A stretch of 64,000 nt of DNA, from the sequence record NC_018859.1; one strand, 5' to 3'. The DNA is from Escherichia phage ECBP2. The notes beneath the pieces are model-generated. The model was not told where the DNA came from. It was given only the letters and a program-made list of their open reading frames with translations, and made no database searches. Made by a program: the position numbers and the translations under genes. The stretch's first letter is position 1; each line of letters starts with the position of its first letter. This document shows positions 39,409 to 62,119 of this stretch, piece by piece.

Positions 39409-40013
39409 TTCAGTTATTCCCAAATTACTTCGGGTGTCGGACTATATCATAACAGCATAGCTAATTTGCTGTTGTTGGCGCTTCGAGGGTTTCCCTGTTA
39501 ACCCCCTACTCCCTTAGGATAGTCTCTACACTTTCCACTTCCGAATCCATCTACAACCGATTCCGAAGCTCACACCAAACTTCTCTGCAAGATGTACACC
39601 AGAGCATTCTGTTTCTAGCCAATAGAGCCTTGCAGCCTCTTGCCTATCTCCATTTCTTCCAGTGTTTGATTCTATTGCATGTTCTGAACCTTCAAGCATT
39701 TCTAAGTGCTCAAGATTGGAACAAGCTCTATTCTTGCATTTGTGATTTATTTCATAACCGTCAGGAATAGAACCAAAAGATTCTTCCCAAACATGCCTGT
39801 GATACATGACCCATTTGCCATCTATTACTTTTCTGAAATAACCATTTTTATTAAGTTTGTGTGAGATAGGGATGATACACCCTGTTTCGGTTGTTTCCAA
39901 AACAAGAGTTTTCTTAGCCATATCATCTCCTAATAGCTTAGCTCGGTATTGCCCTCAACTTAATGGTAGGGTTTCACCGAGTTCACCAACTTTTACATGC
40001 ACAATGAAAGTTT
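39409..40013 (-). mobile_element. putative group I intron (about 605 nt) carrying an HNH homing endonuclease ORF, inserted at polymerase motif C
   Basis: Joining the His codon ending at 40014 to GAT at 39408 gives VIDMH|DEGQF (motif C). Exon 1 ends in U and the insert ends in G, as group I splice sites require. Confidence 0.45.
39526..39921 (-). CDS. HNH homing endonuclease (intron-encoded)
   Basis: 131 aa; KWVMYHRHVWEESFG...EINHKCKNRACSNLEHLE (HNH_3-type); RBS GGAG. Confidence 0.7.
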   Translation of the reverse strand: MAKKTLVLETTETGCIIPISHKLNKNGYFRKVIDGKWVMYHRHVWEESFGSIPDGYEINHKCKNRACSNLEHLEMLEGSEHAIESNTGRNGDRQEAARLYWLETECSGVHLAEKFGVSFGIGCRWIRKWKV

Positions 40014-41705
40014 ATGCATGTCGATAACCTTCGCACAACGAACACCATCACGCTCAATCCATTTATTGAGGAATAGCATTGCATACTTCATAACAATCGC
40101 CCCAGCGCTCTGTAAGAGCGTATTTAAGGCTTTATGGACCATAACCTTTCCAGTTGCATCTCTTCTCATTGTAATACGACGTCCATCCACACCGTAGATG
40201 TATCCACTTTGTGCTTTCTCGGTCATACGTTCAATAAGGATTGCAATACAAGGATTCTCTGCTAAGAATCTTGCTCTCATAATAGCCCCTTCGTCAGAGC
40301 CACCACCTACGATACTTCCTAGTTTAGCGTCACCTGCCCCATAGTTAAAGGCATATATAAACGTCTTAGCGTTATCGCGAGTAGGAAGACCAGCAAGTTT
40401 TTGGTTATGTGAGTGAATATCTCCTTCTAAAAGAATATCTCTGTACATAACAGCAGAAGCTAGACCACGTTCAGCTTCTCGTTTCTTAGCTGGGTTGTTT
40501 TCTCGCTCTGCTTCAGCGAGCATCTCACGACATTCTTTAATAAGGTAGTGAGCTAGCATCCTCAGCTCAAGACCAGAGCCATCGTAACCTAAGAAGATTT
40601 CACGACCAGCAGGTACATAGAACTTATAGGCACCTACAGGTTTGTCTTTCTTGCCCGGTTTTCCCACTTCGTAGATAATGTTAGTACCTTTTCGTACGTA
40701 ACACCCATCAGGGATATGGTTGGTAATGATGAAAGGATAGTTATGACTATCGTCTGAGGAATAGTCAGATTGAAAAAGACTGCGGCACTCGTGACCAAAC
40801 AAACCGCGAGAAGGAATATTAACAACAATACGGTGTTTAAAACGAAATGTCGGAGTAGCGCAGCTATTAGCTTCGGCGGACAACTTACCATCTTCTCGTT
40901 CCTTGTCTATAAGACCATTAATCAAGCCAAGCCTGTGAGCCGCTACAACACGTCTCTTAAGCAAACCTCCCACACCCCCTAGCTCACCCCCAAGACCTTC
41001 TTCAAGCGTCTCCTCGAGGTTTGTAGGAGCTGTAGGCCACTTGTTTGACATGGCTAAAGCTTTCTTAATTTCATCAAAGGTTACAGGCTTCTTCCTGTTC
41101 GGATTCAAGCCTAAACCACTGACGTAGGCTTTCATGTAGTTGACAGTGTGATAACGGAAGTGTTTATCCAAGAACCGACGAATGTCAGCATCAATCATCT
41201 CAGCTGTCTGTTTTTCTTTAGCGTTTCCTCGCATCCAAGCAGAATACCAAGCAGCATATGTGCCATACTTCTTCATCGCTTTACGGATTTCGTAAGTATT
41301 CCAAGGTTTCTTGGATGTGTTCCACTCTGGAGGAATGAAGCCTTCATCCATCAAGGCTTCTTTGATACGTGCATCTTTCGATGGGTCGAAGTCTACATAC
41401 TCAACGCAAGTAAACGCCCCACCGATATCTTCTCTTTTAAGACCAACTCTGTCACAATAAAGCTGAGGCCACTTCTGTAAAGCACCTGACTTCTTAAAAG
41501 GTTTCGAATAAGTTGAACCATCCACCCGCATTTTGGGGAGGAGAGGAATCAGTTCTTTATCAATATTGACAATAATCTCTTTGAGAAGGTGAACAAACCA
41601 CCGAGCGTTTCTTCTGTGGAAGTTGACGCCATGCTTCGCCTGCTTTGAGATTATATCAGCGACTGTCATCTCCGTTATGAAAGGTAACTTATCAGGGTTA
41701 TCCAT
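40014..41705 (-). CDS. DNA polymerase (family A, T7-like) polymerase domain, exon 1
   Basis: DGSGLELRMLAHY (motif A), LPTRDNAKTFIYAFNYGAGDAKLG (motif B), HKALNTLLQSAGAIVMKY; ATG at 41705 follows AAGGAG; the uninterrupted ORF instead ends KLSLCM at 39993, losing motif C. Confidence 0.8.
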
Positions 41706-41721
41706 CACCCACTCCTTATAG

Positions 41722-43932: not shown

Positions 43933-44253
43933 TCAGATTGATTTGTCCTTATGTAAACGGTATACTTCAGTAGCCATACAAGCAATACGCTCGTCATGTG
44001 GGAGATGCATACCAGTAGAGCCGTTCCATCCTTCGAACTCTGAATCAAAGAATCCAACAGGCTCGGGATACATCTCTTGCAAAGTGGTTAAGTCATCAGC
44101 CACTTGTTGCCATTTGTCATCAGACCAGATTGGGTCATCCAACCAATAATACAGATAGGAATGGATAAGCATCTGCGTTCTGTGTCGTTTAATCACTTCA
44201 GCAGGACTAATCTCGTTTCCGTTAACAGTCCTAAATGTATTATCATTAATCAT
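43933..44253 (-). CDS. small protein resembling the N-terminal domain Ia of NAD-dependent DNA ligase
   Basis: LIHSYLYYWLDDPIWSDDKWQQVADDLTTLQEMYPE parallels the LigA H.YLYY.LD.P.ISD.EYD.L...L..LE..YPE signature. Confidence 0.35.
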   Translation of the reverse strand: MINDNTFRTVNGNEISPAEVIKRHRTQMLIHSYLYYWLDDPIWSDDKWQQVADDLTTLQEMYPEPVGFFDSEFEGWNGSTGMHLPHDERIACMATEVYRLHKDKSI

Positions 44254-44729
44254 TCCAAAACCCTTTCTTCTAAATCGTAAAAGATTTGATTTGTCCCATT
44301 ATTCTCAACAAGCACTGTTCCATTATCTAACAGGGTAGCAACTTGGGAATAAGGAATGTTCTTTAACATCAGAGCATTAATGGTCGGCTTATTTTTGAAG
44401 TAAGCGACAGGCTCAACATAGAAGGAAATCCCACGACTTCCTTTAATTGGAGTGCTAGAAGATAGAACCCAAATTGTTTCTGGCTTGTCTATTTCCTTTT
44501 CAACACCAACCTCAACAAGTGAGTCAGCAGCGAAACCTACAGGACGACTAGAAGAGCCAAGTGCCCGAATAAATCCTGGCAATTTTGACATGTTAGACCA
44601 ACTACCAGTGTTTTCATTAAACACAGGTCTTACGTCTCCATATGCCCAAACCAGATTATCATAGTCACGGGCTATGTATTTAACCCAATCAGGAACATCA
44701 TACTCCCTTCCTTCAAAAATAACTTTCAT
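44250..44729 (-). CDS. hypothetical protein
   Basis: 159-aa ORF. Confidence 0.45.
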   Translation of the reverse strand: MKVIFEGREYDVPDWVKYIARDYDNLVWAYGDVRPVFNENTGSWSNMSKLPGFIRALGSSSRPVGFAADSLVEVGVEKEIDKPETIWVLSSSTPIKGSRGISFYVEPVAYFKNKPTINALMLKNIPYSQVATLLDNGTVLVENNGTNQIFYDLEERVLE

Positions 44730-44999: not shown

Positions 45000-45552
45000 G
45001 GTCTGACAGTCGCTGACGACACAACTCTGACCAACCGTATAGAGAACCAGTCCATACCCACTCAGTGATCATACCCTGAGGTAATACGAATCGAGCTTGT
45101 TCTGGAGCAATGAACTTAATCAATTCATCGTACGACTCAAGAGCTGTTTCATATGCTCGGTTAATCAGAACTAGTGCAGAGTTTTGTGCTCCTGTGGTGA
45201 GGAGATTCCCTGCACCTGCATGGAGGTCCGAAGGTCTTTCAAAAATCTCTTTAGGGATGAAGAGTTCAACTGCTCCATCTTTATACCGCCGGGACATTTC
45301 GTTCCACGAGAATCCAACTTGGTGTTTATTGAGTTGTCTAGCAATTGCAATGGGAGCCTTACACCGAAAGGTGATTTGAGGGTGTCGAAAAGGAGTCACA
45401 TGACGTTCCCGAGCTAAGAATTTAATCAACCGCTCGTCACGTTCGTTCAGATCACCATCTCGTGTCACACCAAAGGAAACCCTTGCTGCATTGACCACAG
45501 ATTTGTCGGAACCCATGTGCTCTACCAGTGTTGCTTTTAAAAAATCAGACAT
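44902..45552 (-). CDS. thyX: FAD-dependent thymidylate synthase
   Basis: Region HQVGFSWNEMSRRY resembles the ThyX RHR...S...S.RY signature. Confidence 0.75.
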   Translation of the reverse strand: MSDFLKATLVEHMGSDKSVVNAARVSFGVTRDGDLNERDERLIKFLARERHVTPFRHPQITFRCKAPIAIARQLNKHQVGFSWNEMSRRYKDGAVELFIPKEIFERPSDLHAGAGNLLTTGAQNSALVLINRAYETALESYDELIKFIAPEQARFVLPQGMITEWVWTGSLYGWSELCRQRLSDHAQYEVRVFASTIDEELRKIYPISWDALREAH

Positions 45553-46012
45553 ACTTCAACTTCTCCTTGTTGTAAATTTCTTCTGCCTCTTCGCAAGAAG
45601 CAAAAGTTCCTAAATGTATATTCTTACCTTTGACGCCGATAATGGCTCGATATTTATCACCAGAAGCTGTCTTACGAAGATACACACCTCTAGGAAGATT
45701 TCCTATCTTGTTATCAACATCGTACTGCCTTCTGTTATGACAGTTAGTAGATGGATTCACATCTCTTAGGTTATCAATTGAGTCATTAAGTTTGTTCTGG
45801 TCAATGTGGTCAATTTCAAACTCAGGGAATTTTCCATGAACAAAGAACCAAGCAAGACGGCAAGCTCTGTAGCTTTTCCCTTCATGCTCAATGTAACGAT
45901 AACCTAGAGAAGATACATACCCAGCTTGATTTCCTTTAACCCTTCGACCTTTTGTGTTCTTCCAGAAGAAGTCTCCAGTCTTAGGGTTGTATTCCAAGTC
46001 GTCTTGTATCAT
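45545..46012 (-). CDS. HNH homing endonuclease with AP2-like DNA-binding domain
   Basis: EIDHIDQNKLNDSIDNLRDV (HNH) plus YRAIIGVKGKNIHLGTFASCEEAEEIY (AP2-like). Confidence 0.7.
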   Translation of the reverse strand: MIQDDLEYNPKTGDFFWKNTKGRRVKGNQAGYVSSLGYRYIEHEGKSYRACRLAWFFVHGKFPEFEIDHIDQNKLNDSIDNLRDVNPSTNCHNRRQYDVDNKIGNLPRGVYLRKTASGDKYRAIIGVKGKNIHLGTFASCEEAEEIYNKEKLKYV

Positions 46013-47140: not shown

Positions 47141-47707
47141 TTAGTAAGACACGTCACCACTAGAGTGGGACATGTTGCTCTTGACGAAGTAACAGAACTT
47201 GCCAAGACCTTCATTAATTTCTTGAAGCATACTCTGGTCTACTGGATAGGTGCACAAGTCTGAATCAAACTCGTCCATCTTTTCAATGATACACATCAGA
47301 GTCATGCACATGTCGGAAAGCATACCGTCCATGTCGAGATCAGCACTACCTTCTCTGAACCAAGCACAACTAAGATAGCTACTAGCTGTTGCATCCACTT
47401 TGATACAGTGATAACGCATTCGCTCAGCTACTCGGTCTCCTGTTTCACGAGCATAGTCTTCTAATTCATCGAACATACCATGAACACCTTGGAAACCAGC
47501 TCCAGAGACGTTCCAGTGGTAATTCTTTGCTTTGATGTGTAGAAGCTCAAGGTTAGCCTGCACACCGCATAGGATGTGCTCTAGACTGTTACCGCTGATC
47601 AGTTTATTCATTCCCTCAAGACGAGAGATAGAGGAGTCAGTTGTAGAGAATGGGTTACTAGAACCCACTCGTGTTAGTTCAGGTAAGTCGAAGACATTAT
47701 TATGCAT
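47141..47707 (-). CDS. Dps/ferritin-like protein (putative)
   Basis: HWNVSGAGFQGVHGMFDELEDYARETGDRVAERM parallels the Dps ferroxidase-site motif; RBS GGAGAG. Confidence 0.5.
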   Translation of the reverse strand: MHNNVFDLPELTRVGSSNPFSTTDSSISRLEGMNKLISGNSLEHILCGVQANLELLHIKAKNYHWNVSGAGFQGVHGMFDELEDYARETGDRVAERMRYHCIKVDATASSYLSCAWFREGSADLDMDGMLSDMCMTLMCIIEKMDEFDSDLCTYPVDQSMLQEINEGLGKFCYFVKSNMSHSSGDVSY

Positions 47708-48723: not shown

Positions 48724-49257
48724 TTATACACCTTTAGATGCAACTACACCTTCAGAGTTATTATAACGACCCTTCACTGCATAGGAGTGTTCCCCTGCAT
48801 GAGAGTGCTCAAACATCACCATCTGACCAACACGCATACCAGCACGAACTCGTAAGCTGTGGTTGTGAGTAACGTTATGGAATTCAAAGGTTAGCTTACT
48901 GCTATTAAACCCTGCATCAGCCCAACCAGCATGAAGGTGGTTCAAACCACAACGAGCCATTGAGGAGCGGAGTACAAACAGGCTTGAGATATTATCTGGA
49001 AGGTTAAACTCTTCCATCGAGTGAGCTAAGAAGAACTGTCCCGGAGTGATAACGATACCATCTTCAGGGATTTTTACTTCTTTCCACTTGAGGTTTTCTT
49101 TAGCATCAATGTCAACAATGCCGTCAGCCTGTTCTTCAACAAGGATAGTATCACCAATACGGATATCCACGCTAGCAGCGTTAACATATTTATGCTCCGC
49201 ATCTAAAAAGCCATTATCAATAACGCTGTGTAATTCTTGAGAACCTAAAAGACTCAT
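48724..49257 (-). CDS. dcd: dCTP deaminase / dUTPase-family protein
   Basis: SVDIRIG and RSSMARCG segments typical of the dCTP deaminase family. Confidence 0.75.
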   Translation of the reverse strand: MSLLGSQELHSVIDNGFLDAEHKYVNAASVDIRIGDTILVEEQADGIVDIDAKENLKWKEVKIPEDGIVITPGQFFLAHSMEEFNLPDNISSLFVLRSSMARCGLNHLHAGWADAGFNSSKLTFEFHNVTHNHSLRVRAGMRVGQMVMFEHSHAGEHSYAVKGRYNNSEGVVASKGV

Positions 49258-50702
49258 GAGTTTCTATTTCCTTGTACAGATGATGCCAAATTGTTAATCA
49301 TGTTGCGAGCTGTTTCACGAGATAGTGTAACACCTGCTAAGTTGTTATGAAGCTCACCAGATAGTTCACGAGCAGCAGCTCGAAGTTCTGCACCAAGTGC
49401 AGTGTCAGAGTGAGCCAGACCGTTACGACGACCGACAGGTCGAGGAGTATTGTTAGCATCATTAGCTAAAGATGGAAAATCAATACGAGCAGCTTCACGA
49501 GCCGCTATCGCTGCTACTCGATCTTCCGTAGGGGTTGGCAAATCACCAACTTCTACACGTTCTATATCACCAGCACATAGACCCTGAACAACTGAGCTTA
49601 CTGTTTCCCATGAACGATGAGAACGCTGTAAATCACCCATTGACGGAGAAGGAATAGGACGAGCAGTTCCCCCTTGAACATGCCATGTACGGTTGTGGGT
49701 GTCCGTCCCAGAAGAACGTGCACTACCAAAACTACCATTAAAAGTATTACGAGGGTCCATTGTAGAAGGGGCTGCGAATCTTGGGACTTCCTGTTGCCAA
49801 GAGTCACGTCTGTTGGTTCCCGGAGTCCAAGGTTGTGTGATTGCTTCAGCACCGATAGTGGTTAATCCACTAGACCATTCTGTCTGTAGGTTAACTTCCT
49901 CGTCCAGATAACTACGACCCCTTTCCTGAGGAATGTTTAATATAGTTTCCATCATCTTCAGGGTATAATGACGACGCTGATTCTGATATAAATTTACACC
50001 AGCCATAGGTCCAACTAAATCACTAATCAGGTGAACTTCTGGCTCACCGAAAGCTCCCATTGCAAGGTGCATATATTCGGTAGAACTGCTATAAACTGCA
50101 ACAGTTGCTTCAGGCCACTTCTTGTGAACGTACTTCATTTCACGACTAGATACCACAGGAATGTCACGAGTGTATGACATTGCAAACAAACCTTCGTTTG
50201 ACACATACAGATTACCAAGAGTCATAAACCCTTGACAGATCATAGGGAAGCGACGGCTTAAAGTATCCATATCCAAAGGTAGATTAATCATCATCTGGAT
50301 TTTAACTTGATCAATCTCAATTTCCAGAATCTCTTGGAAAGTGAAAAGCGCTTCAGCATAGGTTGTCCCGTTAACAGGCTGAATTAGTCGAGATGTAACT
50401 TGAAGCCCCTTACTCTCTGTCCAAGACAAGAAGTTGTCAAGGAACAGTGCAGCATTACTTACGTTAGCAGGGCTGTTTTCCTGACGAGTGTTCCAACGGA
50501 ATCCCCCTTGAACTAGGAAGATATCAACATCATTCGGAGTTCGATTTTGGAAGAACGTATCACGGATAGCACCACCTGCAATGACAGGATAGATACCATC
50601 AGGGACTACGTTATCTCTGATCAAATTACGAATTAGGTCAAGCCCTACACTGAGGGCTTCTCCTTCTTGAAGGTTCAATTCAGACAATGGAATCTTAATC
50701 AT
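49254..50702 (-). CDS. nucleotidyltransferase with CCA-adding/poly(A)-polymerase-type head motif and disordered C-terminal half
   Basis: GGAIRDTFFQNRTPNDVDIFL matches the GGxVRD...D.D head motif; the C-terminal ~200 aa are Ser/Arg/Gly/Thr/Ala-rich. Confidence 0.5.
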   Translation of the reverse strand: MIKIPLSELNLQEGEALSVGLDLIRNLIRDNVVPDGIYPVIAGGAIRDTFFQNRTPNDVDIFLVQGGFRWNTRQENSPANVSNAALFLDNFLSWTESKGLQVTSRLIQPVNGTTYAEALFTFQEILEIEIDQVKIQMMINLPLDMDTLSRRFPMICQGFMTLGNLYVSNEGLFAMSYTRDIPVVSSREMKYVHKKWPEATVAVYSSSTEYMHLAMGAFGEPEVHLISDLVGPMAGVNLYQNQRRHYTLKMMETILNIPQERGRSYLDEEVNLQTEWSSGLTTIGAEAITQPWTPGTNRRDSWQQEVPRFAAPSTMDPRNTFNGSFGSARSSGTDTHNRTWHVQGGTARPIPSPSMGDLQRSHRSWETVSSVVQGLCAGDIERVEVGDLPTPTEDRVAAIAAREAARIDFPSLANDANNTPRPVGRRNGLAHSDTALGAELRAAARELSGELHNNLAGVTLSRETARNMINNLASSVQGNRNS

Positions 50703-50704
50703 TT

Positions 50705-51253
50705 CTACATTTTCCAGTTGAGAGATGGGGGATTCTTATAATCAAATCCTGCCATTTGGCAAAGACACATATAAACCTTAACTGTTAAGTTAACGTCTTG
50801 CTCACAATATGTGAACATGTCTTCAGTGAATGCATCCCATGCTTCTTCCTGCTCACCATAATCACCCTTCAGCTCACCCAGAAATTCGCCCCATTGCTTG
50901 AGGCCGTGACCACGAGGGCCATGTCTTGGGTCGCCTTTGGGATATTCTGGATTGTCTCCAATACGGTCAGGCTTGAGATAACGACTCAGGCAAAGTGTAT
51001 CGAAAACATTGAAGTGGAAAGGTATTACATGAGAGTAGAATTTAAAGAGAGCTGGAAGGTCGAAGTCGATAATGTTATGACCTACAACTACATCAGCTTC
51101 TTTCAGTTTGTGAAGAGCTTCTTCAATTTGGTGAGGGCGATACCCCCACCGTTCACCTGTAAGAGCATCAAATATCCAGATACACCAGACATTTTGGATG
51201 CCCTCATAGAGATTATCACCCTCGATATCGAAGGCGAATATTTTCTTTACCAA
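50705..51253 (-). CDS. 3'-5' proofreading exonuclease (T7 DNA polymerase exo-domain-like), separate gene
   Basis: [10 protein letters not shown] (Exo I), [12 protein letters not shown] (Exo II), YCEQD (Exo III); TTG start 7 nt after GGGGAGG, overlapping the helicase stop. Confidence 0.7.
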
Positions 51254-53037
51254 GGTCGTGCCTCCCCGTCTTGTGTGAGCAGAGAAGCTGCATCCTCACC
51301 ATTGGTCAAGACAAACGGATTAGCTTCATCAACTTCATGATCTTCTCGTTCTACAAGTCGACCTGTTTCATTGATGTACTTGGTGTAGCAAACACCTGTC
51401 TGACCATAGTTACGCTCTTTGAGGAGTCGTATGATTGACAAGTTCTTGCCTAACCCATCAGCTTGCTTATCTCGTTCAAAACCAATGATGCACTGACACC
51501 AACGCATTAGTGAACGTGAACCAGTGAACTGAACCTCTTTCACCTGTCCACCTTCTTCGTGAGGAGCACCACCTGCCGGAGCATTCAAGTGAGATAATAC
51601 AAAAGCAGTGAAGTCTAATTCCTTACACATACCAGCAAGCTCTGAGGCAATCTTACTGATTTCTGTATTCACTTCAGATGGGGTTAGGTGAGAGACTAGC
51701 GCAGTGATGTTATCAAGAATGATAAACTTACACTGATTCTCGACTACCCAGAAGCGAATACACTGCTTAATATCATCCCACTCATTCTGACCGAAGTTAT
51801 CATACAAGAAGAATTTATCAGCATAACGAAGTGCTTCATCACGTAGCTGAGATTCCTCATATTCAACATCAGGTCGGTGGAAAGGTACAGATGCTGACTT
51901 ACCTGCAATGTTTTTAACAGACATGCCTACCTTCTCTTCCAAGAAGAAGCCACCACCATTAAACCCATGTTCAAGGCAAAGCCATGCTACCAGTTCGTGT
52001 GCGATCAGGGTTTTACCTGAACCAACACCACCACCGATTGCAACCATCTCTCCCCAACGAATACCGAAGGTCATTTCATTCAGAGTTTTCCACGGATAAG
52101 GAATACCCCACTCCGCTTTCTTCAGAGCATCTTCTAAACAATCAAAGACAGTAACAGCACCAGCAGGTGATTCCCGCTTCGCTGAATATTTCAGATTGTT
52201 GAATAACTCTTGACCTCGACCAGCGAGTAACATGTCATTTGCATCTTTGATTTCCTTCTCTTGACCATTGTAAGTGAAGGTTCCTTTCGGAATACGAGCA
52301 AATTTAACATGGGGGTATAATGCACGACCTTTAGTTAATGCAATCTCACCTGCATCATCATTGTCCATGCAGAGCACAATCTCCTCAAAACCATTCAAGA
52401 AGTCACGGTTACGTGAGAGAACGGAAGAGATTGAACCTGCACCAAACGGTAGAGATACACACGCAGGTTTGATGTTTGTAGCGTTCGTAAACGCAGTGAG
52501 CACATGGAAGCCAGACATACAAGAGAGTGGGTCTTCAAAGATGAAGAGCTTCTTGTTGTACACGTCACCACGTTGTGCTTGAGCCATACCGAATAGGTCA
52601 GCTTCTTTAACACTGCCGATGTAATAGAATTTCTTGCTGTCCAGAAGCTTAACTTCATAACCAACAATGTTTCCATCACGTTCACGAGGGAAGAAATAAC
52701 TATCAGGAGTTTGCCCATCCGTCTGACTTAAACCGATACGACATTCATATCGTTCAGAGACAGCTTTAGGAATCAAACGACGAGTAAGCTCGCCCTGAGG
52801 TAGCTCTAAGCAATCGTCTAAGATCTCTCGGAGTTCTTCAGGGGATAGTTCTTTCTTCTCATTCGGTGTAGGAGTTGTTCCCTTTTCGAAAACTTCATAA
52901 CTGCCACAACGATTACAACTGCCCCACTCTTCACCGGACTCTTCGTTTCGGAAGAGAATCATGTGATTGTGGGTCTTATCACGACCATGAGAGATACATT
53001 CCTTACAACCTGTATCTCCTAGGATGATCTTTGACAT
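51247..53037 (-). CDS. primase-helicase (T7 gp4-like)
   Basis: N-terminal zinc ribbon CKEC...CNRC, central TOPRIM-like region, Walker [10 protein letters not shown]; RBS AGGAGG. Confidence 0.85.
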
Positions 53038-53073: not shown

Positions 53074-53379
53074 TCAATAAAACGAACGTATTTCTTCCCA
53101 CACATCATCTTGAAGACTTTTAAAACCCTGTAAAGCTGATTGGGTTCTCATGATAAAATCTTCAGAATGTTTATTGCGGTCAAGCATACTGACAAACTTA
53201 TCATAACGGTTAATCTTCCACCGTAACTTTAAGTAATCAGACTCAAGCTTTCTCAGCTTCTGTCGCTCAATTACTGTCATCCTGTTCACCTGCCAGATAC
53301 GCTGTCCAATCACCAGATTCAACCAGAACATCTTGTTCTTCGTCGATATGATAAATCCACGCTTCCACAGTTTCACCAC
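53074..53379 (-). CDS. hypothetical protein; start probably internal
   Basis: 101-aa ORF whose 5' end overlaps the upstream gene. Confidence 0.35.
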   Translation of the reverse strand: MVKLWKRGFIISTKNKMFWLNLVIGQRIWQVNRMTVIERQKLRKLESDYLKLRWKINRYDKFVSMLDRNKHSEDFIMRTQSALQGFKSLQDDVWEEIRSFY

Positions 53380-53698
53380 TATCCAGCACTACTGGAATTA
53401 GTGTACGATTATAGAAGGTATATGGGTTGTCTTTACCACGATAACCTTCCAGACCGTCATATGGACCTTCCAGACCAGCTTGAGTTGTTTCAAACACTTC
53501 CACACGAACAGGCTTACCATTACTGTCATGTTCCAGAGATACACTTGGGAAGTATGCTGTGCAATACTGATACAGGTTACAGTTGTTTACTGTCCACCCT
53601 TCACCAATAGACACACCACCTGCACGAGCGTTGATAGCGTGGTTGTGTTGACCTTTACGAAGAGAACCATACGTTGCAACTAATACTTTATCAGACAT
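53267..53698 (-). CDS. gamma-glutamyl cyclotransferase-like (AIG2/GGCT fold) protein
   Basis: N-terminal VATYGSLRKG (YGSL motif) and downstream LEGYRG; RBS AAAGGT. Confidence 0.5.
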   Translation of the reverse strand: MSDKVLVATYGSLRKGQHNHAINARAGGVSIGEGWTVNNCNLYQYCTAYFPSVSLEHDSNGKPVRVEVFETTQAGLEGPYDGLEGYRGKDNPYTFYNRTLIPVVLDSGETVEAWIYHIDEEQDVLVESGDWTAYLAGEQDDSN

Positions 53699-53702
53699 TA
53701 CA

Positions 53703-53900
53703 TTACCTTTTGTTTAGAATTTCTTTTGTACAAGAAGTCCCGTTACACACGAGAATTGTTTGAGTTACAGAATCGACAACCGTTACATGGCTGCCACATT
53801 GAGTTATAATTTGACCTCTCCCTGAATCTTTAGAGATGCATTCATCAGCGGCGATTGCTGATACGCTGAATAAGGAGAGGAGGAGTAAAATCTTTTTCAT
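53703..53900 (-). CDS. small secreted Cys-rich protein
   Basis: Signal peptide MKKILLLLSLFSVSAIA followed by six Cys in 45 aa. Confidence 0.4.
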   Translation of the reverse strand: MKKILLLLSLFSVSAIAADECISKDSGRGQIITQCGSHVTVVDSVTQTILVCNGTSCTKEILNKR

Positions 53901-53906
53901 GACTGT

Positions 53907-54323
53907 TTACCAATCGTATAGGAAACCAGAATATCCGGAGAAAATGATTGATCGAACATCTTTTTCAGAGATTAGTTCAAAACTCTTCTTAACAGCTTCC
54001 ACAAGATCACTGTTCGACAATTCTTTTTCCTTGAACCAATACTCTTCAAAAATATCAGAGAAGGTGTAGGTTCGATATCTCTCCAAGTCATAATAATGGT
54101 CTACTGCATAGTTAATAACTCTGCTGATAGAGCTAGAAGCCACAGGGAAAAGGGAGCTGTGCTCCATAAACAGGCACCAGCGATTAAAGAGTGGTATGTC
54201 TTCATCTTTCAGAAGACTCTCTAGCTCTTCCTTTGCCTCTTTCTTATGCTTCTCAAAGAGGTTTTTGGAATACTCTACGTCTAAGATACGACTTTTAAAC
54301 ATATCCAGTTTATTATCAACCAT
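53907..54323 (-). CDS. hypothetical protein
   Basis: 138-aa ORF. Confidence 0.45.
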   Translation of the reverse strand: MVDNKLDMFKSRILDVEYSKNLFEKHKKEAKEELESLLKDEDIPLFNRWCLFMEHSSLFPVASSSISRVINYAVDHYYDLERYRTYTFSDIFEEYWFKEKELSNSDLVEAVKKSFELISEKDVRSIIFSGYSGFLYDW

Positions 54324-54379
54324 TTACAACCTCCAGTTAAATTCGAACTAGCCTCCTCTTTCGAAGAGGCTAAAGCAAA

Positions 54380-54565
54380 TTATTCTACTTCGAAGTGTTT
54401 GATCACACCAGTCAACACATCAGATTGGAATGTACCTACCAACTCCACTCCTCGGAAGAAGTTAACACTTGTTCCAAGCGATTCAAAACGCTCTGCTTGA
54501 ATATCTAGAGATTGAATATTACCTTCTGAGTTTACTGTACGAAACATGATTGTGTATTTATTCAC
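54380..54565 (-). CDS. hypothetical protein
   Basis: 61-aa ORF. Confidence 0.35.
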   Translation of the reverse strand: MNKYTIMFRTVNSEGNIQSLDIQAERFESLGTSVNFFRGVELVGTFQSDVLTGVIKHFEVE

Positions 54566-54804
54566 AGAGTTGTTACTCCCTTATCTTCTTGTGCAATTGC
54601 GATGATACGCTCAACACATTCCATTGAATATTTATCACCTCGTTTAAGGAAGGTGACAATTGCAGAGAACTGATTACCAATCATTCTCTTGTTTGTGATT
54701 CCAAACTCTTCACAGAGTTGGTTAATAGCTTTACGAGAACCAACAATCAGAGGTTCTTTTTGTTCGGTCATTCCACGACTGATCAAATCTTCGATAGACA
54801 ACAT
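54562..54804 (-). CDS. hypothetical protein
   Basis: 80-aa ORF. Confidence 0.35.
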   Translation of the reverse strand: MLSIEDLISRGMTEQKEPLIVGSRKAINQLCEEFGITNKRMIGNQFSAIVTFLKRGDKYSMECVERIIAIAQEDKGVTTL

Positions 54805-54829
54805 TACAAATTCCTTTTGTTTTTTTTAA

Positions 54830-56077
54830 TTACAGAGTTACTGCTACTTCACTACCTTCAACAGTTACAGACTCTAACTTACGAGGGTTATTAATCTGTG
54901 CTGGATGGACTGGAACGTTCCAACCACTGCGGTAGAAGTTACGACCATCGCAGAACAGAATGACATTGGCAGACATTGCATTAGGTTGCAGGTTGTTGTA
55001 AACATGACGAATATTTGCAATCCAGTAACCACGAGACAAAGTATAACCAGTAGGTGCATTACGAATAGTTTGAGTATTCATCTGACCTTCCAGTTGCATT
55101 TCTTCAGGAACCACATCAACTGAATCAACCGGTTGTGCTACTTGGCCTTCCAGTGCAAAGTTTTCATCGTCAGCACTTTCACTGTCAGCAACCAACTCAC
55201 CGTCTCCGTCTTCGATTGGAGCTTCAACAGGAGTCTGGTAAACTACTTTATACTGAGGAGTATAGAGAGGGTTTTGAGCTTTAACAAACTCAAGGATGTT
55301 GTGACGGTAGATATCCAGAGTTGTGCCAGTTAGGCCCGGTGCTGTATTAACTTCCAGTACCCATGCTTCTTGACCTTTGGTGATGATATCAACTGCACCG
55401 AAATCTAGACCCATTGATTCAACAGCTTTCACTGCGTTGATCAGAGAGGCATCGTTCGGAACGTCTGTGAAGGAACTTGAGTAAACCCAACCAGTGTGAT
55501 GGTTACGAACATCTTCACGATAGTTAGGGTCTTCACGATAACCGTTACGACGAATCTTTTTCTGAACATAGGTGATAGCACCTTTGAACACATGGACACG
55601 CCATTCACGACGTGGGCCTTGAATGCCTTTAGTGTACAGTTCAGCTCGACCAAGACCATCACCCGGTTCTACAACAACAATGCCCGAACCAGAGTGACCA
55701 GTCAGCTCATGGCGCTCATACACAATATTACCAGTGTTTGACCACTCTTGAGCAGTCTCTTGAACATCTGTGTATTCCACAGTTTTAACACCTGCTTGGC
55801 CCATCACGCTGAAAGCACGACGTTTGTTCGCTGCCATATGTAAGGCTGCGGTACGGTTAAGGACGGTTGCAGAACCAAAGAATGATTCAGGATAGCGACG
55901 GTTCCCGTAGTTAACAACCACATCACCTTCACGAGAACGCCAGCGGCTATTCTCTGAAAGAAGACCCATCACGTTAGCATTGATGCGTTCATCACGGATA
56001 GTATCACTGATAGCAGATACCAGAGCGTTAACAGAATCAGACGGGCCATACGGAAGAACACGGATACGAGTAGTCAT
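54830..56077 (-). CDS. ATP-grasp ligase (RimK/GshB-like)
   Basis: GHSGSGIVVVEPGDG and WVLEVNTAPGL segments typical of ATP-grasp enzymes; RBS AGGTA. Confidence 0.65.
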   Translation of the reverse strand: MTTRIRVLPYGPSDSVNALVSAISDTIRDERINANVMGLLSENSRWRSREGDVVVNYGNRRYPESFFGSATVLNRTAALHMAANKRRAFSVMGQAGVKTVEYTDVQETAQEWSNTGNIVYERHELTGHSGSGIVVVEPGDGLGRAELYTKGIQGPRREWRVHVFKGAITYVQKKIRRNGYREDPNYREDVRNHHTGWVYSSSFTDVPNDASLINAVKAVESMGLDFGAVDIITKGQEAWVLEVNTAPGLTGTTLDIYRHNILEFVKAQNPLYTPQYKVVYQTPVEAPIEDGDGELVADSESADDENFALEGQVAQPVDSVDVVPEEMQLEGQMNTQTIRNAPTGYTLSRGYWIANIRHVYNNLQPNAMSANVILFCDGRNFYRSGWNVPVHPAQINNPRKLESVTVEGSEVAVTL

Positions 56078-56078
56078 T

Positions 56079-56309
56079 TTAGATACCTTTTAGTTTAAGA
56101 ATTTCGTTACGACAGGATTGAATTTTAACTTCGATTGCCCAATACTCGGCGAACATTTCGTCTTCTTGGTCATCGTTTGGTGAATCAATTAGGTTGAAAG
56201 CAAACGGATACAGCTTTCGCTGCTCCGTCACCATTTGTTGAAGTCGGAGCTGTTGATACTCCAGCATTGTCAGGTGAGGCTTAGCTCCCTTGCTTGACAT
56301 GAGGCTCAA
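56079..56309 (-). CDS. hypothetical protein
   Basis: 76-aa ORF. Confidence 0.35.
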   Translation of the reverse strand: MSLMSSKGAKPHLTMLEYQQLRLQQMVTEQRKLYPFAFNLIDSPNDDQEDEMFAEYWAIEVKIQSCRNEILKLKGI

Positions 56310-56514
56310 CTTTAATCCCCTTCATTTTCACGTAGTCAGCCAACACGTTGTTAATAACGGTTGGAAAAGGGATTTCAACTGGAGAGTCAACCAGCTTCCC
56401 AATACCTTCTTGCATCCACTTCTGAATGGCTCGAAGGTTATCACATCCTGTGCTTGTCATTGGGATACGTCGAGTAGTTACAACGTTATCCAACATCAAT
56501 TTACGAACTTCCAT
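56281..56514 (-). CDS. hypothetical protein
   Basis: 77-aa ORF. Confidence 0.35.
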   Translation of the reverse strand: MEVRKLMLDNVVTTRRIPMTSTGCDNLRAIQKWMQEGIGKLVDSPVEIPFPTVINNVLADYVKMKGIKVEPHVKQGS

Positions 56515-56525
56515 AACTTCACCTC

Positions 56526-58559
56526 TTAATGTTTACCTTTACAGTAATCTGAATTACAGATCACCCTGTTTTCTTTGTTTAGTGAGCAAATTTCTGCATC
56601 ACGCCACGGAATTTGTTTATAACAGACTGCACAAAACCCAATTGAAGTCCAGAGGGCTTTTGTGAACTCAGCTGTTCGTTGTCCGTCGTAACTGACAACT
56701 GTTTTTCGGAGAGTTGTTTGCTTTTCTGGAAATGTCTCCGCTTTCTCAGCGGGCACCTCCTTTGGGGCATTCTTTGGACCATAAACAGAGATGGCATAGG
56801 TATCGCCACCACGTTTTTCCAAATAAGAGTTTGGAACATCAGACAATTCAATGTCACCAGAACGTTTAGCTGAGCTGACCATTACAATCATCCGGCTAAG
56901 CATACGCTGATCAACACGAACTGCTACTTCAGGGCGGCGTGGGTTAGTTGTGTCAACTGCTTTAGTCCAAATGTAACCTTCAGACAATGTAGTGTTAGTC
57001 ACTTTGTCTTTGATTTCTTTGGCACAGACATAACAAATGTCTTCACCACGCAGTTTACTCATTTCATTATCAAACTCGAAATCAGTTTTAACATTACCAC
57101 ACACAGCACAGACACCCAAAGGAATGTCTTCATCTTCTTCAGATGGTTTGGAGAGTGCTTCGAAACAGGCCGGATGCCAATATGCTTGGTAAGCGAACAC
57201 AGCTTTCTTAGCATCTTTCCAATCAATGTGCTTATCACAACCACCACAATCACCGTGAGAATGTGATTCCCAGAACTTACGAGTGACTTCTACACCATTC
57301 TTAGTGATGAAGGAGTCTTCTAAGTCAAAAGGGATATCATCATCAAAATCAGCGGTGGTGCTTTGAGGCTCCTTATCGGTAGCGTCAACAAACAGCCCTG
57401 AAGTTAGTACGAGGCGAATCATACTGTCCACTTCGGAGATACAAGCAACTGTCCCGCGATACACTACCTTTGGGTTTTCGAGAGCCTTCAAGTACTCACT
57501 CTTGGCTACATTATGAACATCACCCTCAACATATTCTTGAGCAGCATCATCATAAATATAACCAACCATCTTACCACGGTCAGTGTTGTTGTAAGCATGG
57601 AACTCGTGAGGGATGATATCCACACGACCATCACGACGATATGGAAGACCACGATCGGCAGCCAGTTTATTCTGATCTTCAATCGCTTTACGACGGCGAA
57701 TGTCTCCGCTTGTCACGCCGGGCTTGTCGTCTTTGTTTCCGTAAATGTCGCTTGTGCTGCTGCTTGATTTGTTTGTCTGTTGGCTCTGATATAGTGAGGA
57801 GTTCGAGTAATAGCCGCCCCAGCGACTCGTTACCGTAAAAACCGGAAGCTTGTGCTCCACCTCTTGAGTCAGAGTCATACGGTTGCCAGACAAATCAAAG
57901 ATGTATTCAGTTCCCACTTTACACTCAAAGTGATCATTGATACGGTTCTTGTGTGACTTGGAACGATTAAGAATCCACATCAACATATCTTCTTCAGAAG
58001 CACCAAACCAATCCAGACCACAACGGGCCAGATGGAAAGGACGTTCATCGTTACGAATGATATGCAGAGTATTGTCTTTGGCGTCATGCCAGATTAAAGT
58101 GAACGCACCATCCAACTTCTGGATAGTCTCTGCTGCACCAATGGTGTTGATTGAATGACAGATGTTTTCGCTATCAACTTCGAAGTTCTTATGGTCAGGT
58201 AACAGCTCTTGGTCCATCAATGTACCATTGTGAACCAGAGTAATGTCACCATGAGAGAACGGGTGAGCATTTCGAGCATTGACAGCGCCACGAGTGGCAT
58301 GTCGGCTATGACCAACAATCCACGCTGGAGGAACTACATAGTTCGTAAGCCCCTTAGTAATATTCGTGTACTCTGTCTGAAGCATGAAAGCATAAGAAGG
58401 AAGTGCTTCTTTATAAGAAAACACTCTTGCATCACTTTTACGCTGACCGAACACACCAGTTGAGTGCTGACCACGGAAGACTCCGGCATACAGAAGCTGG
58501 TTGAATACGTCTAAGTCTGTGGAGGTCATGTTGCCCCCAGCTAATACGATACCACAAAT
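56526..58559 (-). CDS. class II (Ntn-type) glutamine amidotransferase with Cys-rich zinc-ribbon C-terminal region; probable non-ATG (ATT) start
   Basis: FRGQHSTGVF, GHSRHATRGAVNARNAHPF and VHNGTL match class II motifs. The frame upstream of the first ATG (58529) reads K-I-C-G-I-V-L-A-G-G-N after a TAG, giving the canonical CGIV N-terminus with AGGTGG 8 nt upstream of ATT. Confidence 0.65.
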   Translation of the reverse strand: MCGIVLAGGNMTSTDLDVFNQLLYAGVFRGQHSTGVFGQRKSDARVFSYKEALPSYAFMLQTEYTNITKGLTNYVVPPAWIVGHSRHATRGAVNARNAHPFSHGDITLVHNGTLMDQELLPDHKNFEVDSENICHSINTIGAAETIQKLDGAFTLIWHDAKDNTLHIIRNDERPFHLARCGLDWFGASEEDMLMWILNRSKSHKNRINDHFECKVGTEYIFDLSGNRMTLTQEVEHKLPVFTVTSRWGGYYSNSSLYQSQQTNKSSSSTSDIYGNKDDKPGVTSGDIRRRKAIEDQNKLAADRGLPYRRDGRVDIIPHEFHAYNNTDRGKMVGYIYDDAAQEYVEGDVHNVAKSEYLKALENPKVVYRGTVACISEVDSMIRLVLTSGLFVDATDKEPQSTTADFDDDIPFDLEDSFITKNGVEVTRKFWESHSHGDCGGCDKHIDWKDAKKAVFAYQAYWHPACFEALSKPSEEDEDIPLGVCAVCGNVKTDFEFDNEMSKLRGEDICYVCAKEIKDKVTNTTLSEGYIWTKAVDTTNPRRPEVAVRVDQRMLSRMIVMVSSAKRSGDIELSDVPNSYLEKRGGDTYAISVYGPKNAPKEVPAEKAETFPEKQTTLRKTVVSYDGQRTAEFTKALWTSIGFCAVCYKQIPWRDAEICSLNKENRVICNSDYCKGKH

Positions 58560-58636
58560 TTTCTAATCCACCTGAAGGGTAAACCCTTTCATCTAATTAA
58601 CCTTTAAATGCGCCCTTTATCAGAGCGCCCATTGTA

Positions 58637-59737
58637 TTACAGCAGTCGTTCTAATTGCATTTCCAGATGGTCTGGAATATAACCAGTGACGTTATCATCA
58701 CTGCTACCCGATTCACGCATCAATGCAAACATGTGACGAATTTCACGAACCGTTGCGATTCGAGTGCTTTCAATCTGAGGGGTGTAATAGGTCATGATCT
58801 CTTCATAGACAGCGTTGGCATTACCACGAACATATCCCAAGAAACCATAGAAGTCACCCATATCACGCAAGTTGATAAGGACTTCACCATCAGGGCCAGT
58901 CTGTTGTACACGAACACGACCAACCAGAGTAACAGAATGTTCACGACAGAACAGAATATCACGAGCCAAACGATAACCACCAGTCAGGTCATCATCATTA
59001 GGTGTGTAGTCCAGAGGCAGATACTGAATCATAGGAGCGAAGCGTAGCTCATTCAGTTTCTCAACATATGCTTCATTGTCCAAATCTGCATACTCAACAG
59101 CCAGTTTCTTAAGAACCAAGAAGCGGTTGACCAGATTAAGGAGTTGGCTTTTCTTCCACTTTGGCTCTGAGATACGAAATTCAACAGAACCAAACTGAGC
59201 CAGAGGTAATAGGTTAAGGGAGGTGTACTTGTCCCAGCTATTAACAAGAGTATTGAAGAAGGCTTCACCATCTCGGTTGAACGCTGAGGAAGCATTCATT
59301 ACCTGTGCTTGAACAACAGCAAAGGCAGGACAGAAGTTGCTACGATAACGATGATATCCAGAACATTTGAACATCATCTTTTCATAGAACGTCCATCCAA
59401 GAATTACTTTCTTCAGGATATTACTATCAGCGTCACGCATATCCATATGAACGTGAGTAGAGCAGCGCCAAGTCCCTTCAGCTTCAGAGTCTTGTACTGC
59501 TTCACTCAGATTGTTAATAGCACTAAGCAATTCTACACCGTTGTAAGGCCGTGCACAAACCATCTCACAGCCATCACGAAGTGAACCATCTTCAGTACAG
59601 ACCCAAAGATCTGCATCAATTTCAGAGGTTCCTTCAACTTCCAGCTCGATGCCAATACCACACTGAAAAGCGATGCTTGGGTGCGGCTCAGCCAGACGAG
59701 CATTACGGTATCCAAAAACTTGTGCTACGGTTGTCAT
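58637..59737 (-). CDS. carboxylate-amine ligase (glutamine-synthetase-like, Amidoligase_2-type)
   Basis: CGIGIELEVEG, TEDGSL and CSTHVHMDMRD resemble the Glu/His ligand pattern of putative amidoligases. Confidence 0.55.
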   Translation of the reverse strand: MTTVAQVFGYRNARLAEPHPSIAFQCGIGIELEVEGTSEIDADLWVCTEDGSLRDGCEMVCARPYNGVELLSAINNLSEAVQDSEAEGTWRCSTHVHMDMRDADSNILKKVILGWTFYEKMMFKCSGYHRYRSNFCPAFAVVQAQVMNASSAFNRDGEAFFNTLVNSWDKYTSLNLLPLAQFGSVEFRISEPKWKKSQLLNLVNRFLVLKKLAVEYADLDNEAYVEKLNELRFAPMIQYLPLDYTPNDDDLTGGYRLARDILFCREHSVTLVGRVRVQQTGPDGEVLINLRDMGDFYGFLGYVRGNANAVYEEIMTYYTPQIESTRIATVREIRHMFALMRESGSSDDNVTGYIPDHLEMQLERLL

Positions 59738-60360
59738 AACGTTTCCACCAACTCTACATTATATGATGACAGATCTGAAGAAATATGCTTGAACTTCTCC
59801 AGAAGGTTTAAAGATTGACGACCATTGTCGCCGTTACCAGCAGAAAGATCAACTTGACCTACAAAAGCCCCTTTGTAGTAAACTTTACCATCAACAGGGT
59901 TAATATAGATGAAGCGAGTAACCAGACCTTCAAAGTCAGGGTTGAACAGGTTATACACCAGCTCTCCTGGAATCGAACGTCCCATTGAAGGAGGTGCACC
60001 ACGCAGCTTGTTCCCCATCAGACCCTTAGCTCGCTGACGAACAGGGTTGATATGAGTCCAGCTTACCATGTTGTTACCATGTTGCAGATAGCCCACATCT
60101 GGAGATTCCAGAATCAGGCTCTGATCAAACACAGGAATACCCTGAACAACCTGTCGCTCAAACTGCCCTTCGGAGTTCTTAGACCAGCGTTCAACTTCAA
60201 AGGTTAAGGCCATTTCGGCTTCGTGAGAGAAGTCGTCTTCCCCAAAGCGGTTTGGTTGGGTTACGTTAAGCACATACAGAGGGAGATTAATCCCTCGTTC
60301 TGCGCGTTGGGCAATCCATGTTCCGCAATAATAATGCTGAAAATCTCTTAACAGGCTCAC
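59734..60360 (-). CDS. hypothetical protein
   Basis: 208 aa; apparent GTG start after AGGTG. Confidence 0.4.
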   Translation of the reverse strand: MSLLRDFQHYYCGTWIAQRAERGINLPLYVLNVTQPNRFGEDDFSHEAEMALTFEVERWSKNSEGQFERQVVQGIPVFDQSLILESPDVGYLQHGNNMVSWTHINPVRQRAKGLMGNKLRGAPPSMGRSIPGELVYNLFNPDFEGLVTRFIYINPVDGKVYYKGAFVGQVDLSAGNGDNGRQSLNLLEKFKHISSDLSSYNVELVETL

Positions 60361-60369
60361 GATAACACC

Positions 60370-61176
60370 TTAGATAATCTGAAGTTGAGAGGAGAACTTA
60401 TCCGCTTCTTTAACATCATTGCTGTTAATGATGTTGTGAAGCTTTTCGATAGGCAAACGGGAGTGCAGAGACATGAGGATTTCCATGTCACAGCCCTGAA
60501 TAACCTTATCAACTTGATCGTAAACAAACTTACGAGTGGACTGTTCACCAATCCAGAAGTTCGACAGAGAACGATATTCAATACCGTAATCTTTATAACG
60601 AATCGCCGATGCCTTACCGTAAAGTTCTTTACGACGAGTGTCCTTGTCCATCACAACCGCTGGAAGTGACAGGAAGTAATCGCACAGCACACCCAGCATC
60701 ATCTGAGTCTGACGACTAATTTCCAGTGTACCAGTAACACCGAGGTGAACGTGACCTCCAGCGGTACGCAGACCTTTGTCTGTCGCTACCGGAGATGGGT
60801 TTTTCTGACCAGTGAAGGCGTTGAAATCAGGAGTACAGCCAAATACGAAGGCTGACGGGTGGAATGATTCCAGCTCTTCAGCAGTATACACATGAGAGCT
60901 AATCCCAAGCGCAGCTTCCATACCACGTTCATGGAGAACTTTGTTGGTCAGATCAATACCACGCTGGATGTTATCATCAAACGCTTCAAACCCTTTCTGT
61001 GGGTTAATATCAAATTCAGCCAGAACGTTGTCTTCTTGAAGACGAACATCAGGGGCCAGATCGATTTTGTTATCTTTAGAACAGCCCAGCTTACCAGCCA
61101 CAGAGGTGATAACACCAGAAGCAGTACGAACAAACATTTCAGGGTCAGAACCAATAAGGAAAGCACGCTTAGTCAT
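60370..61176 (-). CDS. second carboxylate-amine ligase-like protein (COOH-NH2 ligase-type, putative)
   Basis: FLIGSDPEMFV and AGGHVHLG echo the G.E.E ... H.H pattern of the neighbouring ligase; ATG at 61176 overlaps the upstream stop (ORF-track start at 61221 is a GTG). Confidence 0.45.
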   Translation of the reverse strand: MTKRAFLIGSDPEMFVRTASGVITSVAGKLGCSKDNKIDLAPDVRLQEDNVLAEFDINPQKGFEAFDDNIQRGIDLTNKVLHERGMEAALGISSHVYTAEELESFHPSAFVFGCTPDFNAFTGQKNPSPVATDKGLRTAGGHVHLGVTGTLEISRQTQMMLGVLCDYFLSLPAVVMDKDTRRKELYGKASAIRYKDYGIEYRSLSNFWIGEQSTRKFVYDQVDKVIQGCDMEILMSLHSRLPIEKLHNIINSNDVKEADKFSSQLQII

Positions 61177-62119
61177 TGTAATACTCCACAAGTTCATCAA
61201 AAAGGGAAACAACACGGGCACCAGCTTCTTCTGGTGTCATTGAGGAAGGTACTGCTTGCATCAAGCGTTCAATAAAACTGCGAACAGTAATTCTGTCCAT
61301 ACGCTGATCTAATACTTCACGTTTATGGCCTGCACACATTGACCAGAGACGTAACCACTCACTCATACTTTCATAATAGTCAGGGTCTTGGTCACGACGA
61401 CGGGCCATACTACGAAGAACTCCGTCATTATGGTTTCGTACATAACCATCTCTGTTAGCGTCAATACCAAATATATTCTGAACCCATACGTTTTCAGAAA
61501 ATTCATCAGTTGAACAGACCAGTGGCAAAAATGCGATTGCACTCATTTCACCGGTAAAATAGGTCGCTGCTGATTCATCATCAGTATCCACATCATGTGA
61601 ATAATCCCAACGACCAAAGAAGTTACGACTTAAACCAGCTAAGCGTAAAGCTAAGCCGATTCGTTGTCGCTTGAGTAACTCTTCCTTGTCTTGAACGCCT
61701 TCCTGAAGGAACTCCATTCCCATAAAATCCCCATCCAGATAACTCCGGAGGGTCATTAATCCAGTAAACACCTTGTCTGCTGGATGGTCTCGAAGGTTCA
61801 CGGCAACTGAGTTCACCGAAGTGACAGAGAACATGTTTTTATAACAAGACATTGAGTTAAAAATGTCTGTTGCTTCAACTAAAGCTCTTTCGATATCTTT
61901 AGCTGGTGTGCTATAAAAGTTGTGAGGCCAGAAGTTAATAACTCCAATTTCTGAAGTTCTATCACGAAGGCTTGAGAGATTGATACTGTCGCCATTAATG
62001 TCTGTAACAGAATACATATGCTGACAGTTGAAAGTACCAAAACAAGCTCGCCCTCTGAACACTGACTCACCAAAGTCCTCTGATGGTGTTACCGGAGCAG
62101 TCGATGCGGAGATTGACAT
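61169..62119 (-). CDS. hypothetical protein
   Basis: 316 aa; RBS GAGG. Confidence 0.45.
   Translation of the reverse strand: MSISASTAPVTPSEDFGESVFRGRACFGTFNCQHMYSVTDINGDSINLSSLRDRTSEIGVINFWPHNFYSTPAKDIERALVEATDIFNSMSCYKNMFSVTSVNSVAVNLRDHPADKVFTGLMTLRSYLDGDFMGMEFLQEGVQDKEELLKRQRIGLALRLAGLSRNFFGRWDYSHDVDTDDESAATYFTGEMSAIAFLPLVCSTDEFSENVWVQNIFGIDANRDGYVRNHNDGVLRSMARRRDQDPDYYESMSEWLRLWSMCAGHKREVLDQRMDRITVRSFIERLMQAVPSSMTPEEAGARVVSLFDELVEYYND

Follow-up and report, generated by a model that had tools for sequence, protein, structure and literature searches.

The window analysed here was a stretch of 64,000 nucleotides from Escherichia phage ECBP2 (NC_018859.1), and we focused on a minus-strand gene at 43933..44253. 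The gene product is a non-catalytic, stand-alone viral Nlig-Ia protein (PF22745), and it is not a DNA ligase. Its sequence and predicted structure indicated that it is composed of a hairpin of the kind found in domain Ia of LigA, the DNA ligase dependent on nicotinamide adenine dinucleotide (NAD), and of a C-terminal half peculiar to the solo family. We consider it probable that the protein binds a nicotinamide nucleotide and senses or presents this ligand in connection with DNA replication. The solo Nlig-Ia family was already known, since it is curated in Pfam and was described in 2022 in 81 phages with ECBP2_0056 as the exemplar (Iyer, Burroughs, Anantharaman and Aravind 2022, Viruses 14:1977, PMC9503650, section 3.5.1), so it was not a new discovery. 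What is added here is modest and comprises the C-terminal loop and helix, the pocket residue statistics, a helicase fusion, an adjacency to NAMPT, the rarity of the solo form in cellular genomes and the mis-annotation of the gene.

Homology to LigA domain Ia and the predicted pocket

The preliminary description of this gene had taken the protein of 106 amino acids (aa) for a stand-alone homolog of domain Ia, which binds nicotinamide mononucleotide (NMN), and had picked out the peptide LIHSYLYYWLDDPIWSDDKWQQVADDLTTLQEMYPE, corresponding to residues 29-64. Profile searches bore this out, far beyond chance. The protein matched PF22745 ("Nlig-Ia, DNA ligase-like N-terminal NAD+-binding domain") with E = 6.2e-34 in hmmscan, and residues 16-103 were aligned with positions 1-91 of the 92-position model. 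The score was 117 bits, against a gathering cut-off of 27 bits. PHROG 6466 was matched with E = 1.6e-38. When a family profile of 48 homologs was aligned with residues 1-102 of E. coli LigA using hhalign, the probability was 95% with E = 2.8e-8, and query residues 17-66 corresponded to LigA residues 4-52. The LigA reference sequence was 100% identical to that of annotated ligA. In addition, LigA chains were recovered from the PDB by hmmsearch with the same profile. A single-sequence phmmer search of the PDB gave only marginal LigA matches (E ~0.2), ranked below spurious matches to STN1. This meant that profile and fold searches were needed.

The predicted fold was consistent with the profile results. 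An AlphaFold2 model computed from the homolog alignment had a predicted local distance difference test (pLDDT) score of 91 and a predicted template modelling (pTM) score of 0.82. Helices were predicted at residues 17-36, 45-61 and 88-105, with a long ordered loop at 62-87. In a Foldseek search of the PDB, all of the 19 best matches were NAD-dependent ligases, and the hairpin shared with domain Ia of LigA (E. coli 2OWO, T. filiformis 1DGS/1V9P, E. faecalis 1TAE) was superposed over approximately 47 residues at 0.7-0.8 Å. The likeness to domain Ia thus held for the first ~50 residues (17-65). It did not extend to residues 66-106, which form a family-specific loop and helix without a LigA counterpart. 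The same division was seen in BFVD, a set of predicted viral structures, where whole-domain matches (TMq 0.74-0.89) were obtained only to short viral solo proteins and to the N-terminus of Rhodococcus phage ReqiPoco6 gp102, while full-length phage NAD+ ligases matched only the ~47-residue hairpin. The features of the gene were as follows.

43933..44253, minus strand: complete coding sequence of the stand-alone Nlig-Ia protein (106 aa and stop codon), based on the open reading frame (ORF) list, PF22745, PHROG 6466 and the comparison of substitution rates with phage Bas87
44071..44205, minus strand: two-helix hairpin (helices 17-36 and 45-61), residues 17-61, homologous to LigA domain Ia
44107..44151, minus strand: predicted nicotinamide-nucleotide pocket, residues 35-49
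43999..44037, minus strand: family-specific loop F-E-G-W-N-G-S-T-G-M-H-L-P, residues 73-85, outside every LigA alignment and shared only with viral solo proteins in BFVD
43936..43998, minus strand: C-terminal helix (helix 88-105 in the AlphaFold2 secondary structure), residues 86-106, completing the small helical domain
44261..44269, minus strand: purine-rich, putative Shine-Dalgarno-like sequence AAGAAAGGG, 7 nt before the ATG and within the 3' end of the upstream ORF

The predicted pocket was examined using 102 divergent representatives that were 29-51% identical to the query. The register was taken from the hhalign and hmmsearch alignments, in which the query position equals the LigA residue plus 13. 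Sriskanda and Shuman reportedly found in 2002 that five residues of E. coli LigA (Y22, H23, D32, Y35 and D36) were essential for the reaction with NAD+. The corresponding positions in the family were as follows.

LigA Y22, query Y35: Y in 101/102
LigA H23, query Y36: Y in 101/102
LigA D32, query D45: D in 102/102
LigA Y35, query W48: aromatic in 102/102 (W 87, F 11, Y 4)
LigA D36, query Q49: Q in 63 and D in 24 of 102

In addition, query R25 corresponded to LigA R12 and was invariant among the 102 relatives. LigA and the phage protein share R, H, Y-Y, D and an aromatic residue at the positions that contact NMN. Since the LigA of Thermus filiformis already has Tyr at the H23 position, as query Y36 does, the family-specific changes in the pocket were limited to Y35 to W/F and D36 to Q.

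The C-terminal half showed its own conservation. In the phage family, the 'DSPTQRVG' linker of LigA was replaced by the consensus loop F-x2-W-x-G-S-T-G-x-H-L-P and an extra helix, which have no counterpart in LigA. Among the 102 relatives, F73 and G81 were found in 102/102, position 76 was W in 92 and F in 10, G78 was present in 88, position 80 was T in 79 and S in 23, and L84 was present in 99/102. By this measure, the loop was constrained to the same degree as the pocket residues. As a speculation, its glycine-rich G-S-T-G core could contact a phosphate.

Compared with the viral solo family, the protein in the window showed the full-length model match, the length and the invariant motifs, with no substantive difference. 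The engineered NAD+ biosensor 8JYD was among the fold matches, and it also uses the NAD+-binding module of a bacterial ligase non-catalytically to report NAD+. Sensors of this type keep the adenylation domain and a fluorescent reporter, whereas the phage protein consists solely of the Ia part.

Ligase modules, selection and distribution

LigA has nucleotidyltransferase (NTase), OB, Zn-finger, HhH and BRCT domains and a catalytic lysine, unlike the phage protein. Pfam found only Nlig-Ia in the 106 residues, as anticipated in the preliminary description, which had noted the lack of an adenylation domain. An NTase domain (PF01653-type), the KxDG catalytic lysine, and OB, Zn-finger, HhH and BRCT domains were all absent from the protein, and residues 66-106 could not be aligned to LigA. 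We also looked for a ligase elsewhere in the phage. No DNA-ligase domain was detected by Pfam in the other minus-strand ORFs of the window or in the small plus-strand ORFs at its start, the plus-strand structural genes at ~2500-30750 being left unscanned. The ORFs scanned encoded PolA, a separate 3'-5' exonuclease, a DnaB-type primase-helicase, a 5'-3' exonuclease, ThyX, PhoH, dCTP deaminase, thioredoxin and others. In the ~13 kb of the complete Bas87 genome that lies beyond the window, no ligase was annotated, and only small early genes were present. Arthrobacter phage Cassia, which has its own Pol I and primase-helicase, gave a similar picture, with a 100-aa solo domain as its sole annotated "ligase".

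In GenBank, the Nlig-Ia gene was often labelled "DNA ligase" or "NAD-dependent DNA ligase". This label is a mis-annotation, because the catalytic and DNA-binding domains of LigA are absent. It is applied routinely and reaches therapeutic-candidate phages of Kuravirus and Suseptimavirus. ReqiPoco6 gp102, annotated as 'DNA ligase', was considered as a bridging true ligase and was rejected, as it consists of Nlig-Ia and a helicase.

The ORF at 43933..44253 starts with ATG, and these coordinates include the stop codon. Compared with its Bas87 ortholog, it showed 24 nucleotide differences, of which 19 were at third codon positions. The changes were 19 synonymous and 5 non-synonymous, giving a Nei-Gojobori ratio of non-synonymous to synonymous change (pN/pS) of 0.063. 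The ORF is a genuine coding gene that is maintained by strong purifying selection. The start codon overlapped the stop codon of an upstream 159-aa ORF in an ATGA at 44250-44253, and the arrangement suggests that the two may be translationally coupled. Given this overlap and the upstream AAGAAAGGG, the Nlig-Ia gene lies within an all-minus-strand operon of early and replication genes. The 159-aa ORF (44250-44729, minus strand) had no Pfam match, and only its first ~45 residues matched PHROGs, of unknown function. It had no counterpart at the same place in phiEco32, and we therefore regarded it as a genus-specific insertion and not as a partner.

The window was ~94% identical to the ~77-kb E. 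coli podophages Bas87, IME267 and EK010. IME267, the closest classified relative, belongs to the genus Suseptimavirus of the subfamily Gordonclarkvirinae, as ECBP2 also does, and the phage of the window is an E. coli podophage of the Suseptimavirus type (phiEco32-like). Orthologs in phages 4E8, Bas88 and UKE3 had ~97% amino-acid identity. In phiEco32, gp62 was 77% identical and lay in the same interval between PhoH and ThyX; the 159-aa upstream ORF found in Suseptimavirus was missing there.

The family was widespread among phages. When grouped at 50% identity, the matches of an exhaustive profile search formed 989 clusters, and E was <= 1e-10 for 548 of these. The length was 75-150 aa in nearly all of the 150 cluster representatives listed and 73-167 aa in the 90 nearest homologs. 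Using tblastn, the gene was found in 236 phage records (Escherichia 86, Arthrobacter 59, Clostridium 47, Erwinia 16, Rhodococcus 10, and others). When the genomes of ~185,000 species of bacteria and archaea were scanned with a pattern, only five full-length copies were obtained. This rarity in cellular genomes agreed with the published view that the solo form is essentially viral. Two of the cellular copies were examined, those of Janthinobacterium sp. CG3 (locus L018, 4992-7482) and of a Paenibacillus sp. (locus L022). One was directly upstream of ParA- and ParB-like genes with a transposase nearby, and the other had an integrase nearby. Each of the two seems to belong to a mobile element, either plasmid-like or integrated.

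The neighbours of the gene varied by lineage and always belonged to replication or nucleotide metabolism. They were PhoH and ThyX in the window, Pol I in Cassia, NrdD and primase in CS38, and ribonucleotide reductase (RNR), gp32 and gp59 in metagenomic contigs. As a separate observation, gene 4 of Cassia (locus L027, 3814-5826) encodes a large, NAD+-consuming 'VIP-like ADP-ribosyltransferase' in the head-morphogenesis region of that phage. In Rhodococcus phage Weasels2 (locus L005, 1027-4288), genes for phosphoribosyl pyrophosphate (PRPP) synthase, an HNH endonuclease, NAMPT and solo Nlig-Ia were found in a row, and the Nlig-Ia gene overlapped the end of the NAMPT gene. NAMPT is the enzyme that forms NMN. 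The row in Weasels2 is possibly an NAD-salvage operon that includes a binding domain.

Fusions were also found. In ReqiPoco6 gp102 (locus L008, 3959-5584), a complete solo-type Nlig-Ia domain (E = 1e-32) was located N-terminal to a phage DNA helicase (phrog_62, E = 8e-66). Relatives in Gordonia, Arthrobacter and Streptomyces phages were helicases without the Nlig-Ia domain. Two metagenomic proteins, P0164 and P0183 (290 and 315 aa), carried Nlig-Ia followed by a conserved C-terminal module of ~200 aa. The sole match of this module was to PHROG 13900 ('minor head protein'), and we drew no conclusion from it. No matches were obtained for the extensions at the C-terminus of the remaining long family members.

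Functional interpretation

The preliminary description had suggested that the protein could bind NAD or NMN, or modulate the host ligase. Such functions would agree both with the evidence and with the published prediction, which noted that the ligand-binding residues are conserved and proposed a role as an NAD+ sensor or as a shield of NAD+ from NADase effectors (PMC9503650). In the reading we favour, the hairpin would carry the conserved predicted pocket, which would be closed off by the glycine-rich loop and the C-terminal helix. The protein would bind NAD+ or its NMN half, which is the most likely ligand predicted from the pocket. It would be expressed together with the replication and nucleotide-metabolism genes and would serve phage DNA replication as a small accessory that senses or presents its ligand. 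With less assurance, we suggest that occupancy of the pocket may be read by a partner, such as the replisome or the host LigA, rather than serving mere sequestration of NAD+.

Several observations favoured sensing or presenting. The phage has its own polymerase and primase-helicase and no ligase was detected, so it must depend on the NAD+-dependent LigA of the host. Host defences commonly target NAD+. The helicase fusion in ReqiPoco6 has a typical sensor-effector layout, and the carriers use their own polymerase but borrow the host LigA. Cellular NAD+ in E. coli is in the millimolar range, which makes bulk sequestration implausible. NAD+ is also a major battleground between phages and bacteria, where NADase defences are met by phage pathways that rebuild NAD+. 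NARP1, NARP2 and NARP3 belong to the same arena, the phage response to NAD+ depletion, but they consist of enzymes and transporters that rebuild NAD+, whereas the phage protein has no catalytic domain. No NAD-salvage domain (NAMPT, NMNAT, Adps/Namat, NadR or PnuC) was found by Pfam in the minus-strand early and replication genes of the window. A predicted non-catalytic NAD-type binder that is this widespread (~1000 clusters) in phages reliant on host LigA would be a plausible player in the NAD+ conflict. It may also be of use as a compact natural scaffold for binding NAD+ or NMN.

Some points weighed against this reading. A literature search found no binding or genetic experiment for any member of the family. 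No partner gene was conserved across lineages when the 159-, 49- and 89-aa ORFs, PhoH and ThyX were compared by tblastn with seven distant loci. The linkage to NAMPT was absent in Trina, which is related to Weasels2, and in Paella, ENFP1, Clostridium phage C2 and the Erwinia phages, so the adjacency is a single-lineage clue. The helicase fusion was rare. Domain Ia of LigA binds only the NMN half of NAD+, and the AMP half is held by the NTase domain; the affinity of an isolated Ia domain for NAD+ is therefore not guaranteed. In addition, the changes of Y35 to W/F and of D36 to Q (63%) differed systematically from LigA, and a related nucleotide could therefore be bound instead of NAD+ or NMN.

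The main rival explanation is that the protein acts in trans as an accessory of the host LigA, with the free Ia domain docking on the NTase domain or tethering LigA to the phage replisome. It might sustain the sealing of Okazaki fragments on phage DNA, for instance during a shortage of NAD+, or it might inhibit LigA on host DNA. We consider this unlikely. The phage encodes PolA, the two exonucleases and a primase-helicase with no ligase detected, so host LigA must be used. Among the published phages with a solo domain, 80 of 81 were without any ligase (PMC9503650), and Cassia was likewise. The gene lies in the replication modules of unrelated lineages, and the fusion in ReqiPoco6 physically ties the domain to replication proteins through a replicative-type helicase. 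However, the 81 phages represent a few clades, so the anti-correlation with ligases does not amount to 81 independent events. The protein had only ~27-32% identity to LigA Ia and showed no particular likeness to the Ia of its host, so mimicry of the host domain is rejected. A functional Ia is already present in host LigA. We know of no report of trans-complementation by an isolated Ia domain, which also counts against this explanation. The same invariant motifs were found in phages of Proteobacteria, Actinobacteria and Firmicutes, and a small-molecule ligand fits this better than a co-evolving protein surface does. A bolder reading, which we also consider unlikely, is that the free Ia domain works in trans on a replication enzyme, where it would load or activate host LigA or gate a helicase and couple phage lagging-strand sealing or fork progression to the supply of NAD+. 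If this were true, the protein would represent a new class of 'cofactor-presenting' phage subunit, and the glycine-rich loop would supply the contacts that normally come from the NTase domain of the ligase.

A shield or sponge, sequestering NAD+ or an NAD-derived immune signal from NADase effectors or signalling receptors, was one of the two roles proposed in the published work. The conserved pocket agrees with it, and the protein is small and has a single domain, as is generally known of the sponges Tad1, Tad2 and Acb2. We judged it improbable, since stoichiometric shielding of millimolar NAD+ by a protein of 12 kDa is implausible on quantitative grounds, and the nicotinamide recognised by domain Ia is missing from the known NAD-derived immune signals, the cyclic ADP-ribose isomers. 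The PDB fold searches gave no likeness to solved sponges of the Tad1/Tad2/Acb2 type, all significant and specific matches being LigA, and there was no sign of oligomerisation. An adaptor that binds protein or DNA independently of a ligand and merely keeps the Ia fold seemed very improbable to us. The invariant residues were the NMN-contact positions of LigA and the glycine-rich loop, with no hydrophobic surface patch, and this is hard to explain without a small-molecule ligand. The GenBank names would suit a decayed, functionless remnant of a phage or host ligA. Nevertheless, the low pN/pS (0.06), the occurrence of 989 clusters at the same short length across many phage groups, the family's own conserved C-terminal extension and the lack of ligase-derived sequence flanking the gene stand against decay, and the data on selection and distribution effectively refuted it.

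Other genes in the window

PolA polymerase (39993-41708) and the 3'-5' exonuclease (50705-51253) were encoded by separate genes. The primase-helicase gene was located at 51247-53037. Two minus-strand genes for HNH_3 homing endonucleases were found, one at 39526-39921 beside the DNA polymerase gene and one at 45545-46012 beside ThyX. At 47141-47707 (minus strand), a 188-aa protein had a ferritin/Dps-like domain (PF00210, E = 1.9e-6), and it is recorded as a Dps-family DNA-binding protein in phiEco32 and Bas87. The product of 49254-50702 (minus strand, 482 aa) had no Pfam match. It contained a GGAIRD...DVDIF motif like that of pol-beta-type (CCA-adding-like) nucleotidyltransferases and is named 'nucleotidyltransferase' in Bas87.

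A cluster of genes for peptide- and amide-bond enzymes was located at 53267-61221 on the minus strand. It looks like a phage-encoded system for the modification of small molecules or peptides. Its members were as follows.

53267-53698, minus strand: gamma-glutamyl cyclotransferase (PF06094)
54830-56077, minus strand: ATP-grasp-like protein of 415 aa, which carries the name ribosomal protein S6 glutaminyl transferase in Bas87
56526-58529, minus strand: class II glutamine amidotransferase
58637-59737, minus strand: Amidoligase_2
60370-61221, minus strand: 'COOH.NH2 ligase'
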